Assembly: GCA_029856145.1 (NCBI GenBank)
Contig: JAHQWK010000023.1
Location: 47,999 to 111,998 of the forward strand
Reading direction: 5' to 3'
Source of the DNA: Promethearchaeia archaeon
GTDB taxonomy: Archaea > Asgardarchaeota > Lokiarchaeia > Sigyniarchaeales > SOKP01
DNA length: 64,000 nt
Every line of letters starts with the position of its first letter. The stretch's first letter is position 1. Both the position numbers and the translations under genes were made by a program. Below, piece by piece: positions 31,134 to 35,410 of the stretch. The notes under the pieces are model-generated. The model was given only the letters and a program-made list of their open reading frames with translations, did no database searches and was not told the DNA's origin.

Positions 31134-32123
31134 ATGTTAACTCCAGAACAGATGAAAGAAATTTTAAAAGAAAATGTAATTAATCTTAGGTTTCACGCTC
31201 GTGGTGGACAAGGAGGAGTTACTGCTTCTAACCTATGTGTTGAAGCATTTTATGGTTATGGTGTATGTCAACCCTTATTTGGGGCAGAACGTATGGGATC
31301 TCCTACTGAAAGTTATGTCAGGCTTAGCGGAAATGAAGATTTGGTAAGAACTAATGAGCAAGTTTATGCTCCACACGCAGTTTCTGTATTGGATCCCTCT
31401 CTTTTAGGAGAAGTTGATGTAATAGCGGGGATCGCTCCTGGAGGGTGGCTTATTGTTAATACTACTATGGATCAGGTCTCTATTCAAGAAATTATTGGTC
31501 GAAAAGATATCAATATTGCAACAATAGATGCACTAAACATTGCAATGGAAATTTTTGGTAGAAACATTACAAACACTATCATTTTAGGAGCCTTATTAAG
31601 AGTGGTTCCTATATTTTCCATTGATGCATTAGCAGATGCAATAATGCGTCGATTTAAAGGTGAAATTGCGGGGAAAAATGTTGTTGCTATAAAACAGGCT
31701 TATGAAGAAACTTGTATATATGAAACTCCAGATGCTCCTGCTATTGATTTTACGATTGATACAAAAGTTCCTTGGCAACAAGTATATCCTGGATTGCCTG
31801 GATTTAAAGAACTGGATGATGCGGGAGTATGGTACTGTGATGAAGATGTTATAGAAATTGGGAGTAAGCAAGTAAATACGGGTTCTTGGGGTGAATGGGA
31901 TATGATTTGGGACGAAGAAAAATGTACTGACTGTGCTCAATGCTGGTATATTTGTCCTGATTTCACAATTATTAGAGAAAAAGGAGAAGATGGGCTATGG
32001 CATATGAAGGGTATTGACCAAGCTCATTGTAAATCTTGTCAAAATTGTCTAGAGATCTGTCCTGTTCAAGCTATTACTAAAAAATTAAAACAAGGTCCGG
32101 CTTCATGTGCCGTGCCTGAATGA
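31134..32123 (+). CDS. porC: 2-oxoacid:ferredoxin oxidoreductase gamma subunit fused to the delta (2x4Fe-4S) subunit
   Basis: RFHARGGQGGVTAS, FGAERMGSP, NTIILGA; C-terminal NTGSW...CTDCAQCWYICPD...CKSCQNCLEICP. Confidence 0.9.
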   Translation: MLTPEQMKEILKENVINLRFHARGGQGGVTASNLCVEAFYGYGVCQPLFGAERMGSPTESYVRLSGNEDLVRTNEQVYAPHAVSVLDPSLLGEVDVIAGIAPGGWLIVNTTMDQVSIQEIIGRKDINIATIDALNIAMEIFGRNITNTIILGALLRVVPIFSIDALADAIMRRFKGEIAGKNVVAIKQAYEETCIYETPDAPAIDFTIDTKVPWQQVYPGLPGFKELDDAGVWYCDEDVIEIGSKQVNTGSWGEWDMIWDEEKCTDCAQCWYICPDFTIIREKGEDGLWHMKGIDQAHCKSCQNCLEICPVQAITKKLKQGPASCAVPE

Positions 32124-33367
32124 AGGAGGGAAATATTATGAGTATAGAACCGATGAGAATATTTTTTAAAGAAATTAAAGAACCTATCGAAACAACAATG
32201 ATAGGAAATTATGCTGTCGCGGGTGGAGTGACTCAAACAGATCCTGATGTTATTTGTGCTTTTCCTATTACTCCTCAAACTCAATCTGTTGAAGGTTTAT
32301 CTGATGTTGTTCATCACGGAAGATTAAAAGCAGCTTTTGTAAATGTTGAATCAGAATTAGCTGCGATAAGTTATTCAACTGCTGCTTGTGCAGCAGGAGC
32401 AAGATCTTTTACGGCAACAGCAAGTCAAGGTTATTTACTAATGACTGAAGGACTTCCAATGGCTGTAGGATGGAGACTGCCTTTAACAATGATGATTTCT
32501 GCTAGAGCTTTTAATTCACCTAATTTATCTATTTGGAATTCTTGGGAATATACACAAGTTAATTCTGAACTTGGTTGGAATATAATTGTTTCTGAAAATG
32601 TTCAAGAAACTTATGACGCAGCAATCCTTTCAGTCATGATTTCAGAGGAATCATTATTTCCAACTATATTTGTACATGATGGTTTTATAATATCTCATTC
32701 AGTCCAGAAATTAACATTAATCCCAGATGAAACCGTTACAAGAATGACGCCTAAAAAACCAAGAAATACTATTGATCCATCAAGACCAGGAACCTGGGGA
32801 GGTATTGTTACTCCTTCCTATTTTATGGAAGGACGAGCTAAACTAGAAGAAGCTAAACAACCAGTTTTAAGCCAAATGACTGATGTATTCAAAAAATTCA
32901 AAACAGAAACTGGAAGAGAATATAATCTGATTGAAACTTATAATTTGAATAACTCATCTAAAACTGCTTTTTGTACTATGGGTTCATTAAGTGGGAATAT
33001 TATTAGTTGGTTGACAAAAAACAAGGATATTGGTTTAATTAAAATCAGAGCATATCGACCATTTCCATATAAAGAATTACGTAAAATAGTAGAAGAATAT
33101 AATTTAGAAAAATTAATTCTTTTAGAAAAAAGCGATTCACTAAATGGGATGTTACCACCATTTTCAATGTCAATTGCTTCTGCTCTATATCCATTGGGTA
33201 CACTTTTTAGAAGCTTTATTGTTGGTTTAGGCGGAAGAGATGTTACACGAGATGAGTTTGATATAGCAAAAAAGAAAATGGAATCTGTAACAGATATGAA
33301 GGGACAATTATATCAATATCTAGGAGTCAGAGAAACAAAACAAAAAATTTCAGGGGTGAATCAATAA
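32120..33367 (+). CDS. porA: 2-oxoacid (pyruvate):ferredoxin oxidoreductase alpha subunit
   Basis: AFPITPQT, VESELAA, TATASQG, DGFIISH, RAYRPFP, GLGGRDV. Confidence 0.93.
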   Translation: MKEGNIMSIEPMRIFFKEIKEPIETTMIGNYAVAGGVTQTDPDVICAFPITPQTQSVEGLSDVVHHGRLKAAFVNVESELAAISYSTAACAAGARSFTATASQGYLLMTEGLPMAVGWRLPLTMMISARAFNSPNLSIWNSWEYTQVNSELGWNIIVSENVQETYDAAILSVMISEESLFPTIFVHDGFIISHSVQKLTLIPDETVTRMTPKKPRNTIDPSRPGTWGGIVTPSYFMEGRAKLEEAKQPVLSQMTDVFKKFKTETGREYNLIETYNLNNSSKTAFCTMGSLSGNIISWLTKNKDIGLIKIRAYRPFPYKELRKIVEEYNLEKLILLEKSDSLNGMLPPFSMSIASALYPLGTLFRSFIVGLGGRDVTRDEFDIAKKKMESVTDMKGQLYQYLGVRETKQKISGVNQ

Positions 33368-34456
33368 ATGTCAAAACCAGAGAGGAATATTATAAATTTT
33401 GATGATATCTTAGCCAGAAGTGAAAAATCCAATGTTTTATTTTTCAATTATGATAATGAAGCTTTTATGAATACGGGAATCCAAGAAAGTGGAGGAACAC
33501 CACCCTATGCTTCTACAACAACGGGTCCTGCGGGAGAGAAAATTCCAGGGAAAATAGGTGTAAAACAGGATTTAGTGACTCCATTTGCTTTCTACGGAAC
33601 TAAAAAACTCTTCTTAGCCACAGTAAATCCCGCATATCCAAATGACTTTATGGGAAAAGTAGCCGACGCACTTAAATCAAATGGTTCTGCTTTCATCCAA
33701 GCATATTCTGATTGTATGAGAGGATGGAGACATGCTGCTGCTGATGCCTTAAGTATCTCCAAACTAGCAACTGATTGTGGATATTGGCCTCTTTACACAG
33801 TGAGAGTGGAAGATGGTATACCCATTTTTACTTATTATCGTGGATTAGATATTGATAAAGATAAATTTGTAGAATATCTTAAATCAATGGGTAAGTTCAA
33901 GCATTTATTTAAACCTAAATTTATGGAAAAAGAAATTGATGAGATTATCTATTTAACAGAACAACGAAATAATAAATTGAAAGGATTAATCGATCAATTT
34001 GGTGCTGAAAAACCTATAGATGTCTATAGAGTTAATCGAAAGAAACTCCAACCTCAAATCCATTTACAGCCAGGTCATGGTTTATGTCCTGGATGTGGAG
34101 CTGGGATGGTTTTAAATCAAATGGCAACTGCAGCAACCGCTGTTGCTGATACAAACATAATTTATGTTAATAATACAAGTTGTTCAGAAGTTTCAACTTC
34201 AAAAGATAACGTAACTTCCTGGAATGTTCCTTGGGTTCACCATTTATTTGAATCTGGTGCTACTGTTGCTGAAGCTATCTCAACCGCAAAAAAAATTATG
34301 AAAGCTAAAGATCTTTATAGTCAAGAAATTCCTTGGATCATTCACATAGCAGGAGATGGCTCTACGTATGATATTGGTTTTCAATTCCTTAAAGCTGCAC
34401 TTATAAGAACGAGTAGTTTTGTGGAAATGAATGAGTATTTGAAAAATCAAAAATAA
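33368..34456 (+). CDS. porB: 2-oxoacid:ferredoxin oxidoreductase beta subunit, circularly permuted
   Basis: The normally C-terminal block (YDNEAFMNTGIQES...CMRGW...YWPLY) comes first. The normally N-terminal block (PGHGLCPGCG...NTSCSEV...FESGA...AGDGSTYDIGFQ) comes last. Confidence 0.9.
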   Translation: MSKPERNIINFDDILARSEKSNVLFFNYDNEAFMNTGIQESGGTPPYASTTTGPAGEKIPGKIGVKQDLVTPFAFYGTKKLFLATVNPAYPNDFMGKVADALKSNGSAFIQAYSDCMRGWRHAAADALSISKLATDCGYWPLYTVRVEDGIPIFTYYRGLDIDKDKFVEYLKSMGKFKHLFKPKFMEKEIDEIIYLTEQRNNKLKGLIDQFGAEKPIDVYRVNRKKLQPQIHLQPGHGLCPGCGAGMVLNQMATAATAVADTNIIYVNNTSCSEVSTSKDNVTSWNVPWVHHLFESGATVAEAISTAKKIMKAKDLYSQEIPWIIHIAGDGSTYDIGFQFLKAALIRTSSFVEMNEYLKNQK

Positions 34457-34495
34457 ATTTTATTAATTAATCCTTTTTTTCTTTCTGTTTTTATT

Positions 34496-35410
34496 TTAAC
34501 TTTCTTCTAATTTCACGTATAATTTTCTTTTAAATTGAGCGTGATATAATTCACAACGAATGGAGTTTCTGATTATATAACCACTTATTTGAAAAATCGA
34601 ATCTTCTAGAATATAGTCGTGATACATTGATGCTCTACAAGGATATGAATAATGAGCTTTATTTATTTCCTCAATTAAGCTAAATTCATCTTGATTTTCT
34701 TTATTAAAACATTTCAATTTCAATTTTTGAATAATATAGTTAGTTGATCCACATGGAGCGCTCTGTAATATACATGCATCCTCTATTGATCTACCATCAT
34801 TACTCATTAAGATAGATATAATTGGTACTCCTATCCGAAAATGATCTATGAACTCATCAATATAATTCCGTTGTTTTGTTATATGAAATCCTACTTTATT
34901 ATATTGGTCTTCTTCTTTACTTAGTGAACAGAAAGGTTTTGGAAATGCAGCTTGAATATTATATTGTTCAAATTCAAATAAAATCTTAACTTGAAGTTCT
35001 GGAGAAACCCACTTAGGATTTTCAATTGGAACAATTACGGCTTTAACTCCTTTATCTTTCAAATATTCAGGTAATTTGACAAGTAAATTTTTATGGATGC
35101 CAATCACTAATAAAAAGTCAATAGGGGGAATTTCTTCTGGTAAAAAATTGATATTCTCTTCTTCAGCCCTATTAAAATCTCCTCCAACTTTAATATAGAA
35201 ATAAATTTTACTAGCATGACCTTTTAGATATTTACGACATTGAATACAATCTATTTTATTTTCTGATATTTGACAAGCATTGCAAAATTTTAAGTCATTT
35301 ATTAAATGCCCAATGAATTTATTCGCTAATTCTTTGGTTTCAGGTTCTTTACCATAAAAAATTCCTAATTTATAGTCTTTTTTACTTAACATAGATTTAA
35401 CTTTCAACAT
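34496..35410 (-). CDS. DUF166 family archaeal protein
   Basis: CNAC...CIQCR, FLPEEIP, PKPFCSL, SAPCGST, HYSYPCRASM. Confidence 0.75.
   Translation of the reverse strand: MLKVKSMLSKKDYKLGIFYGKEPETKELANKFIGHLINDLKFCNACQISENKIDCIQCRKYLKGHASKIYFYIKVGGDFNRAEEENINFLPEEIPPIDFLLVIGIHKNLLVKLPEYLKDKGVKAVIVPIENPKWVSPELQVKILFEFEQYNIQAAFPKPFCSLSKEEDQYNKVGFHITKQRNYIDEFIDHFRIGVPIISILMSNDGRSIEDACILQSAPCGSTNYIIQKLKLKCFNKENQDEFSLIEEINKAHYSYPCRASMYHDYILEDSIFQISGYIIRNSIRCELYHAQFKRKLYVKLEES

Follow-up and report, generated by a model that had tools for sequence, protein, structure and literature searches.

The DNA analysed here, referred to as the window, is a stretch of 64,000 nucleotides (nt) from an archaeon of the class Lokiarchaeia (assembly GCA_029856145.1, contig JAHQWK010000023.1, positions 47,999 to 111,998). 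It carries a three-gene operon for a 2-oxoacid:ferredoxin oxidoreductase (OFOR)-like enzyme, whose last gene, cpPorB, encodes a beta subunit with its two halves in swapped order. As a result, the GDG...DN motif that binds thiamine diphosphate (ThDP) is split between the C- and N-termini. The open reading frame (ORF) proposed in a first-pass annotation of this DNA was confirmed, as were the positions given for Y28 of YDNEAFMNTG (nt 33449), C240 of CPGCG (nt 34085) and G329 of GDG (nt 34352). Two genes precede it (Table 1). The porCD product, a fusion of the gamma and delta functions, matches Pfam POR (3.5e-26) and Fer4 families and NCBIfam PorC (1e-45 at residues 16-193) and PorD (4e-15 at 245-318); this fusion, known also from oxalate oxidoreductase (OOR), is conserved alongside the permuted beta subunit across the class. 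The porA product matches Pfam POR_N (8e-54) and PFOR_II (9e-12) as well as NCBIfam PorA_Arch (7e-87), is 64-85% identical across orthologous operons and retains the FPITPQT motif beside cpPorB.

The three genes are closely packed. porA overlaps porCD by 4 nt, and its stop codon (33365-33367) directly abuts the cpPorB ATG, in keeping with the tight coupling suggested earlier. A GGGGTGA sequence inside porA may act as the ribosome-binding site of cpPorB, and a T-rich tract after the cpPorB stop is a probable archaeal oligo-T terminator. The gene downstream is convergent (ORF 34496-35410, minus strand). Eight of ten distant loci, from other genera, families and orders of Lokiarchaeia, keep the order porCD-porA-cpPorB. 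cpPorB is encoded with alpha and gamma/delta subunits, as beta subunits of the POR/VOR type (NCBIfam NF008819/NF008818; Pfam PF02775) are.

Table 1. Features of the cpPorB locus and segments of the cpPorB chain, in window coordinates
Feature	Position	Strand	Description
porCD	31134..32123	+	Fused gamma (POR domain III) and delta (2x[4Fe-4S] ferredoxin) subunits, 329 aa
porA	32120..33367	+	Alpha subunit (PYR domain and domain II), 415 aa
GGGGTGA	33353..33359	+	Shine-Dalgarno-like site within the porA 3′ end, 8 nt upstream of the cpPorB ATG
cpPorB	33368..34456	+	Circularly permuted beta subunit, 362 aa plus stop, single intact ORF
N-terminal tail, residues 1-19	33368..33424	+	Outside the canonical alignment, which begins at residue 20
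Canonical C-terminal-half homolog, residues 20-211	33425..34000	+	Profile positions 126-305
Junction, residues 212-226	34001..34045	+	Sole stretch between the two profile alignments, ~15 residues
Canonical N-terminal-half homolog, residues 227-352	34046..34423	+	Profile positions 14-130
C-terminal tail, residues 353-362	34424..34453	+	No canonical counterpart; very strongly conserved within the genus
T-rich tract	34457..34500	+	Follows the cpPorB stop; read from sequence

The swapped order is evident from comparison with a hidden Markov model (HMM) built from 54 canonical beta subunits. Residues 20-211 of cpPorB align to HMM positions 126-305 (E 3e-45), and residues 227-352 align to positions 14-130 (E 7.8e-33). 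The first-pass annotation had claimed a circular permutation that splits the ThDP motif and had named separate alignment of the halves to PorB models as the check; the outcome upholds the claim, with two swapped pieces that are not collinear with canonical PorB. A phmmer search of the PDB returns the same picture. Residues 226-347 match residues 3-115 of Methanosarcina acetivorans PorB (9bt4_C) and residues 23-193 match 119-282 of that chain, while the OOR beta subunit 5c4i_C gives the same swapped pattern with halves aligning at E 1.9e-41. PFOR domain VI, too, matches both halves in swapped order.

Curated family models see only part of this chain. NCBIfam PorB (NF008819) matches in two pieces (cpPorB 20-192 to profile 118-291, the second piece to profile 4-122) for a total of 199.7 bits against a cut-off of 405, and Pfam PF02775, the PP domain, matches at profile positions 70-150 only. 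cpPorB fails the family thresholds solely because of its segment order. It has neither a contiguous GDG-x(~27)-N motif nor a collinear full-length match over a curated cut-off, and it does have what characterises a natural circular permutant: two parent-homologous segments swapped within one ORF, with the native termini joined. The cut in the parental chain falls between the post-GDG helix and the strand ending in DN. GDG and YDN have a spacing of 27 residues in a canonical paralog from this genome; cpPorB has GDG at position 329 and DN at position 29 of its chain. Judged from its sequence, cpPorB is a genuine circular permutation inside the ThDP motif, and by the same measure it descends from, and should work like, PorB/VorB-type OFOR beta subunits.

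All the residues expected at the active site are retained, although at opposite ends of the chain. The first homologous segment holds Y28-D29-N30 (nt 33449-33457), C116 (nt 33713-33715), a GYWPL motif and the native C-terminal helix (187-211). The second holds C240-x2-C243 (nt 34085-34096), C272 (nt 34181-34183), G329-D330-G331 (nt 34352-34360) and the post-GDG helix as far as R347. The ThDP/Mg residues of the family are present as G329-D330-G331, the (D)N pair D29-N30 and the NTG-Q loop N35-T36-G37-Q39. Three Fe-S cysteine ligands had been named beforehand and all three are kept, but the count was too low. Four cysteines (C116, C240, C243 and C272) align to the Cys columns of PorB and of the D. 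africanus and M. thermoacetica PFORs; the ligands of the proximal [4Fe-4S] cluster are Cys812/815/840/1071 in D. africanus numbering.

The description of the join between the native ends needed similar revision. The ends are indeed joined, but much of the linker first assigned to the join is native C-terminal helix and N-terminal sequence, and only about residues 212-226 are extra. Remnants of one and the same helix were also thought to persist at both new termini. The C-terminus does keep the whole helix, including R347, but the N-terminal tail looks helical at most and the overlap spans five positions, such that a shared helix at both ends is a tentative suggestion at best.

An AlphaFold2 (AF2) model of cpPorB, based on a 50-sequence alignment, predicts one compact fold with a mean predicted local distance difference test score (pLDDT) of 80.5 and a predicted template modelling score (pTM) of 0.87. 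Foldseek ranks 9bt4_C as the best match of the model (TMq 0.43). VIA-align pairs model residues 8-209 with PFOR domain VI, PorB and OOR beta (Z 11.6-13.8 over 175-184 residues), and residues 225-362 with the OGOR and StOFOR beta subunits (Z 4.6-5.1 over 108-120 residues). Both aligners are sequential and cover one half at a time; half-coverage of the predicted structure by such programs is the expectation for a permutant. The N-terminal tail is modelled as a strand (6-10) and a short helix (11-15) with pLDDT 78-95, and the junction as a beta strand (212-221) with pLDDT >90. Speculatively, the junction strand and the N-terminal strand may form a small new element. More broadly, the conserved new tails and the junction may make up a novel structural element with an effect on assembly or on the binding of partners.

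The model also bears on where the new termini lie. At the C-terminus, a strand (323-329) leads into GDG and a helix (338-350); at the N-terminus, a strand (21-28) ends in DN. In a right-handed beta-alpha-beta unit, the helix-to-strand loop is situated at the sheet edge opposite the cofactor. Because the cut falls in the helix-to-strand loop of such a unit, the new termini are expected about one helix length from ThDP and should lie away from the site. The first-pass annotation had proposed checking whether the termini meet at the ThDP site; the secondary structure of the model points to a cut at the far end of the beta-alpha-beta unit.

The distribution of the permutation was surveyed in 400 species-level Asgard genomes, 160 from Lokiarchaeia and 240 from other classes. 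The search of Asgard PorB proteins that had been advised at the outset found full-length collinear cpPorB orthologs (51-96% identity) in about 130 of the 160 Lokiarchaeia genomes. Elsewhere in the phylum, the 240 genomes gave half-length matches only (E 1e-15 to 1e-37), with one exception: a 266-aa fragment, 91% identical to the window cpPorB, in a genome of another Asgard class that is rated 8% contaminated (G075:C23:2002-2799). The fragment more likely reflects the mis-binning of a contig than a transfer. Three closed genomes, two from cultures and one a circularised metagenomic genome, encode cpPorB: ‘Ca. Harpocratesius repetitus’ (MCF2138868.1), ‘Ca. Lokiarchaeum ossiferum’ (NEF87_002873) and Promethearchaeum syntrophicum MK-D1 (DSAG12_00808, QEE14985.1). 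In all three, the NCBI product name is ‘hypothetical protein’, because the chain is rearranged.

Larger databases give the same result. When 5.8 billion proteins were searched with a word index, 191 matches came back, and the best 120 of these are nearly all the same 359-368-aa protein or contig-end fragments of it, at 53-90% identity. These 120 come from NCBI, JGI, ENA and Logan assemblies and carry the labels Lokiarchaeota, Promethearchaeota, Helarchaeota or Hermodarchaeota. In all, >100 protein clusters show this order in chains of 359-369 aa. Scanning 1.84 billion representative proteins (50% identity) with HMMER in filter-only mode added one further full-length collinear representative (P0121, from a Helarchaeota metagenome-assembled genome, 52% identity) and fragments. 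No other family with the swapped order was found among these 1.84 billion representatives. At the first canonical match, the bit score falls from 407 to 183. This match, like the other full-length ones, is aligned as two stretches and carries the counterpart of the query's first half at its C-terminal end, an arrangement read as canonical order. The permuted order is confined to the class Lokiarchaeia.

The origin of the permutation was approached with a tree in which the cpPorB halves were re-ordered in silico and 26 permuted representatives were aligned with 54 canonical sequences. In this tree, the permuted proteins group as a single clade with a Shimodaira-Hasegawa-like approximate likelihood ratio test (SH-aLRT) support of 100, a stem of 1.22 substitutions per site and short internal branches; the sister group of this clade has a support of 15. 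Derivation from the genome's own canonical paralogs was not supported, these falling in another supported clade. The best-scoring canonical matches are a PorB from Bathyarchaeia and a fused protein of 852 aa from Altiarchaeales. The permutation would have arisen once, on the stem of Lokiarchaeia, most likely through a tandem in-frame porB duplication trimmed at both ends, with the permuted gene retained ever since in addition to two canonical paralogs. Duplication with trimming is favoured because the native termini are joined almost directly and because profile positions 126-130, five in all, are matched by both chain ends (K20-L24 and T348-V352).

An alternative route, in which porB first broke into two genes at the GDG/DN boundary and these then fused again in reverse order, is unlikely but has several observations on its side. 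The tails beyond the five-position overlap show no significant similarity to the segments predicted by duplication: when residues 5-21, 5-19, 348-362 and 351-362 were slid, ungapped and profile against profile, over the canonical alignment and the protein itself, none found a significant placement there. The N-terminal tail ranked 5 of 288 on the post-GDG helix (z about 2.7), and the best placement of the C-terminal tail was a chance-looking ‘EYLK’ match at canonical positions 260-271 and not on the expected segment. The long matches scanned contained no tandem beta-beta intermediate; they were fusions with ferredoxin, metallo-beta-lactamase or radical-SAM domains, alpha-beta fusions and intein-containing PorBs. 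Several proteins of 184-201 aa begin exactly at the boundary in question. Two of these, P0243 and P0259, were checked as natural split PorB genes that could have served as a stepping stone, but they share 90% clusters with full-length PorB of 318-321 aa and look like fragments. Re-fusion also sits poorly with the alignment of both permutant ends to the same profile positions, and with a native C-terminal helix that runs into the native N-terminus through ~15 extra residues, as in-frame read-through between tandem copies would leave it. Duplication and trimming is therefore the route that we infer.

A separate observation concerns the same part of the protein. In three canonical metagenomic relatives of PorB (P0210, P0147 and P0153), inteins with LAGLIDADG or Intein_splicing domains lie inside the GDG segment or immediately behind it. 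The region around the ThDP motif has thus been hit both by mobile elements and by the permutation cut.

Conservation was assessed in an alignment of 50 cpPorB orthologs that reaches down to 51% identity. Invariant throughout are N27-Y-D-N-E-A32, N35-T-G37, Q39 and the four cluster cysteines, together with G329-D-G331, D335-I-G337, Q339, F340, K342 and R347. Ratios of nonsynonymous to synonymous substitution (dN/dS, Nei-Gojobori) were computed between the window gene and 12 close orthologs, in pairs that are non-independent in that the window gene is a member of each. The ratio is 0.045 for the whole gene, 0.035 and 0.049 for the core halves, 0.10 for the N-terminal tail, 0.07 for the linker region (residues 195-226) and 0.009 for the C-terminal stretch (residues 348-362). 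A pseudogene reading is ruled out by the whole-gene ratio and the invariant motifs.

Some orthologs depart from the window gene in their own ways. In the family of MK-D1, H. repetitus and L. ossiferum (L017:4992-6095; L018:3992-5098, minus strand; L023:3992-5092, minus strand), N replaces D335, changing GDGSTYDIG to GDGSTVNIG, and ~15-20 additional residues occur near window residues 150-170. In three other Lokiarchaeia genomes, the ThDP loop is interrupted directly after NTG, by a 30-nt insert with an in-frame TGA in two (G163, L027:212-241; G274, L028:212-241) and by a frameshifting 31-nt insert in the third (G159, L030 at about 86-116). The inserts fold as hairpins whose stem sequence varies among genomes while pairing is kept, and the flanking exon sequences are mutually paired; they look like tRNA-type (bulge-helix-bulge-like) mini-introns. 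The window cpPorB has no insert at the equivalent site (nt 33476-33482, codon 38). A deep-branching member of the class (G123:C221, L029, minus strand) has an in-frame TAG eleven codons before the end of the ortholog (…VRAG*WGIQN…), which may mark an earlier stop, reflect a sequencing error or be read through.

Published transcriptome data are available for MK-D1. The genes DSAG12_00808, DSAG12_00809 and DSAG12_00810 were transcribed at 286, 372 and 314 reads per kilobase per million (RPKM), respectively, and the flanking hypothetical genes (DSAG12_00804-00806 and 00811-00812) at 176-197 RPKM (PMC7015854, Supplementary Table 3). The three genes are listed there as pyruvate:ferredoxin oxidoreductase (EC 1.2.7.1), a 2-oxoacid degradation step (PMC7015854, Supplementary Table 4). 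The canonical beta genes of MK-D1, DSAG12_00252 and DSAG12_00458, reached 382 and 361 RPKM (PMC7015854). MK-D1 thus resembles the window genome in having two canonical beta genes and one permuted one, and all are transcribed in MK-D1. The two canonical PorB/VorB paralogs of the window genome (L001:1468-2409, minus strand; L002:1486-2394, plus strand) belong to the same family and each lies beside its own PorA-like gene, but unlike cpPorB they follow the profile in its own order (positions 4-298, 362-369 bits). The earlier expectation of a functional gene fits the invariant cofactor residues of the 50 orthologs, the low dN/dS, the conserved operon and transcription in MK-D1, from which cpPorB looks functional.

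Taken as a whole, these observations are very probably best explained by a working OFOR beta subunit that is a natural circular permutant of the PorB fold with a single stem origin. The gamma-delta fusion, alpha and beta subunits would together form a 2-oxoacid:ferredoxin oxidoreductase of the pyruvate/2-oxoisovalerate type. The beta chain would begin with the strand ending in the Mg/diphosphate-binding DN, continue through the second half of the PP domain with the fourth cluster cysteine, and reach the native C-terminal helix. From there ~15 residues would lead to the native N-terminus. The CxxC...C cluster ligands would come next, then the first PP-domain half, with the chain ending just past GDG and its helix. 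Both chain ends would rebuild the cofactor site in three dimensions, with the break in the loop that leads from the post-GDG helix to the following strand, at a distance from ThDP. The 2-oxoacid would be decarboxylated on ThDP, and the electrons would travel by way of the beta [4Fe-4S] cluster and those of delta before reaching ferredoxin. That the site is rebuilt, that the enzyme is active and which type of substrate it takes are inferences from the conserved residues, the operon and the model. A bolder proposal is that cpPorB represents the first natural case, in any ThDP enzyme, of a circular permutation within the PP domain, with GDG...N split, of single origin in the Lokiarchaeia ancestor, and that it yields an expressed, active OFOR in syntrophic amino-acid catabolism; we judge this combination only slightly better than an even bet.

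Besides the unplaced tails and the missing tandem intermediate, three observations weigh against the proposal of a working permutant. First, about 30 of the 160 Lokiarchaeia genomes lack cpPorB, including some rated 98-100% complete (G179, G182, G199, G206, G267 and G270), and cpPorB is for this reason dispensable where canonical paralogs exist. The first-pass idea of a lineage-defining change is accordingly sound in that the permutation occurs in Lokiarchaeia only and in one fully supported clade, but those 30 or so class members do not share the gene. Second, the POR, VOR and OOR models all score cpPorB far below their cut-offs, and none of them assigns a substrate. Third, the ThDP loop (residues 32-65) is of low confidence in the AF2 model, as are residues 275-279, which plausibly fits a model made without cofactor or alpha subunit.

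It is quite improbable that cpPorB, while conserved, has ceased to be a ThDP enzyme and survives as a structural or regulatory paralog, or as an Fe-S electron-transfer subunit without decarboxylase chemistry. Such a change of role would suit the statement that a contiguous GDG-x(~27)-N is strictly maintained in the ThDP family (bioRxiv 10.1101/2021.03.21.436335), the loss of the gene from about a fifth of the class genomes, the N at the otherwise invariant D335 in the MK-D1 family and the long stem branch. However, every class of residue for ThDP/Mg and cluster binding is invariant, the gene always lies beside a matching alpha subunit with FPITPQT and a gamma-delta subunit, and a protein without cofactor would have no reason to conserve GDG, DN and NTG-Q at the dN/dS of its core halves. 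An assembly artefact, in which a chimeric join or a collapsed tandem repeat mimics a permutation, might be feared of a window taken from a 32-contig draft genome, but it is rejected as next to impossible given the same order in independent assemblies from four sources and about 130 species-level genomes, including the single-contig MK-D1, L. ossiferum and H. repetitus, and a divergence to 51% identity under strong constraint that is incompatible with a repeated artefact.

cpPorB, a subunit of a core anaerobic enzyme, is thus a circular permutant that arose once, occurs in one class, is under selection and is expressed: a known enzyme with a newly found chain order. OFORs have been proposed as an energy-yielding step for Asgard archaea and for the archaeal host in models of eukaryogenesis (PMC7015854). 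One of the three Lokiarchaeia beta subunits, the one listed as pyruvate:ferredoxin oxidoreductase in MK-D1, is rearranged, and automated metabolic reconstructions can miss it. For protein evolution, it is a rare natural permutation through a cofactor signature motif that has survived under strong selection and, if the reading holds, a natural test of how much the ThDP fold tolerates. For systematics, a discrete single-origin character confined to one class would, if true, be a clean rare-genomic-change marker for Lokiarchaeia. In another vein, enzymologists gain a ready-made permutant for probing OFOR folding, ThDP loading and subunit assembly.

Full-text literature searches found no report of a permuted OFOR or a permuted ThDP PP domain, only permutation of whole-domain order, and the word stem ‘permut’ is absent from the MK-D1 paper (PMC7015854). 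Among known systems, the closest is M. acetivorans PorB (9bt4 chain C; NF008819), the best phmmer match among solved chains. Its halves are homologous to those of cpPorB, with 32% identity over the aligned parts, and it shares the ThDP/Mg residues, the four cluster cysteines and the operon company of alpha, gamma and delta functions. cpPorB differs in that the halves are swapped with GDG...DN split between its C- and N-termini, in its extra tails (19 and about 10 residues) and ~15-residue junction, and in the fusion of gamma and delta in its operon. That fusion recalls the OOR of Moorella thermoacetica (5c4i; beta NF045792, fused delta NF045790), a three-gene system in which domain III and a ferredoxin domain are likewise joined. 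The OOR beta subunit, however, is collinear with PorB, and the cpPorB operon scores far below the OOR cut-offs (beta 176.7 versus 590; delta 75 versus 230); the likeness is one of architecture and has no bearing on CoA-independence or oxalate specificity. ThDP families also offer a precedent at a larger scale, where ‘circular permutation’ describes the domain orders PP-PYR-third domain of transketolase and dehydrogenase types and PYR-third domain-PP of decarboxylase types (bioRxiv 10.1101/2021.03.21.436335). There, as in cpPorB, homologous segments are rearranged and the same cofactor site is rebuilt. Whole domains are moved in that case and GDG...N stays contiguous, whereas the cut in cpPorB runs inside the PP domain and through the motif itself.

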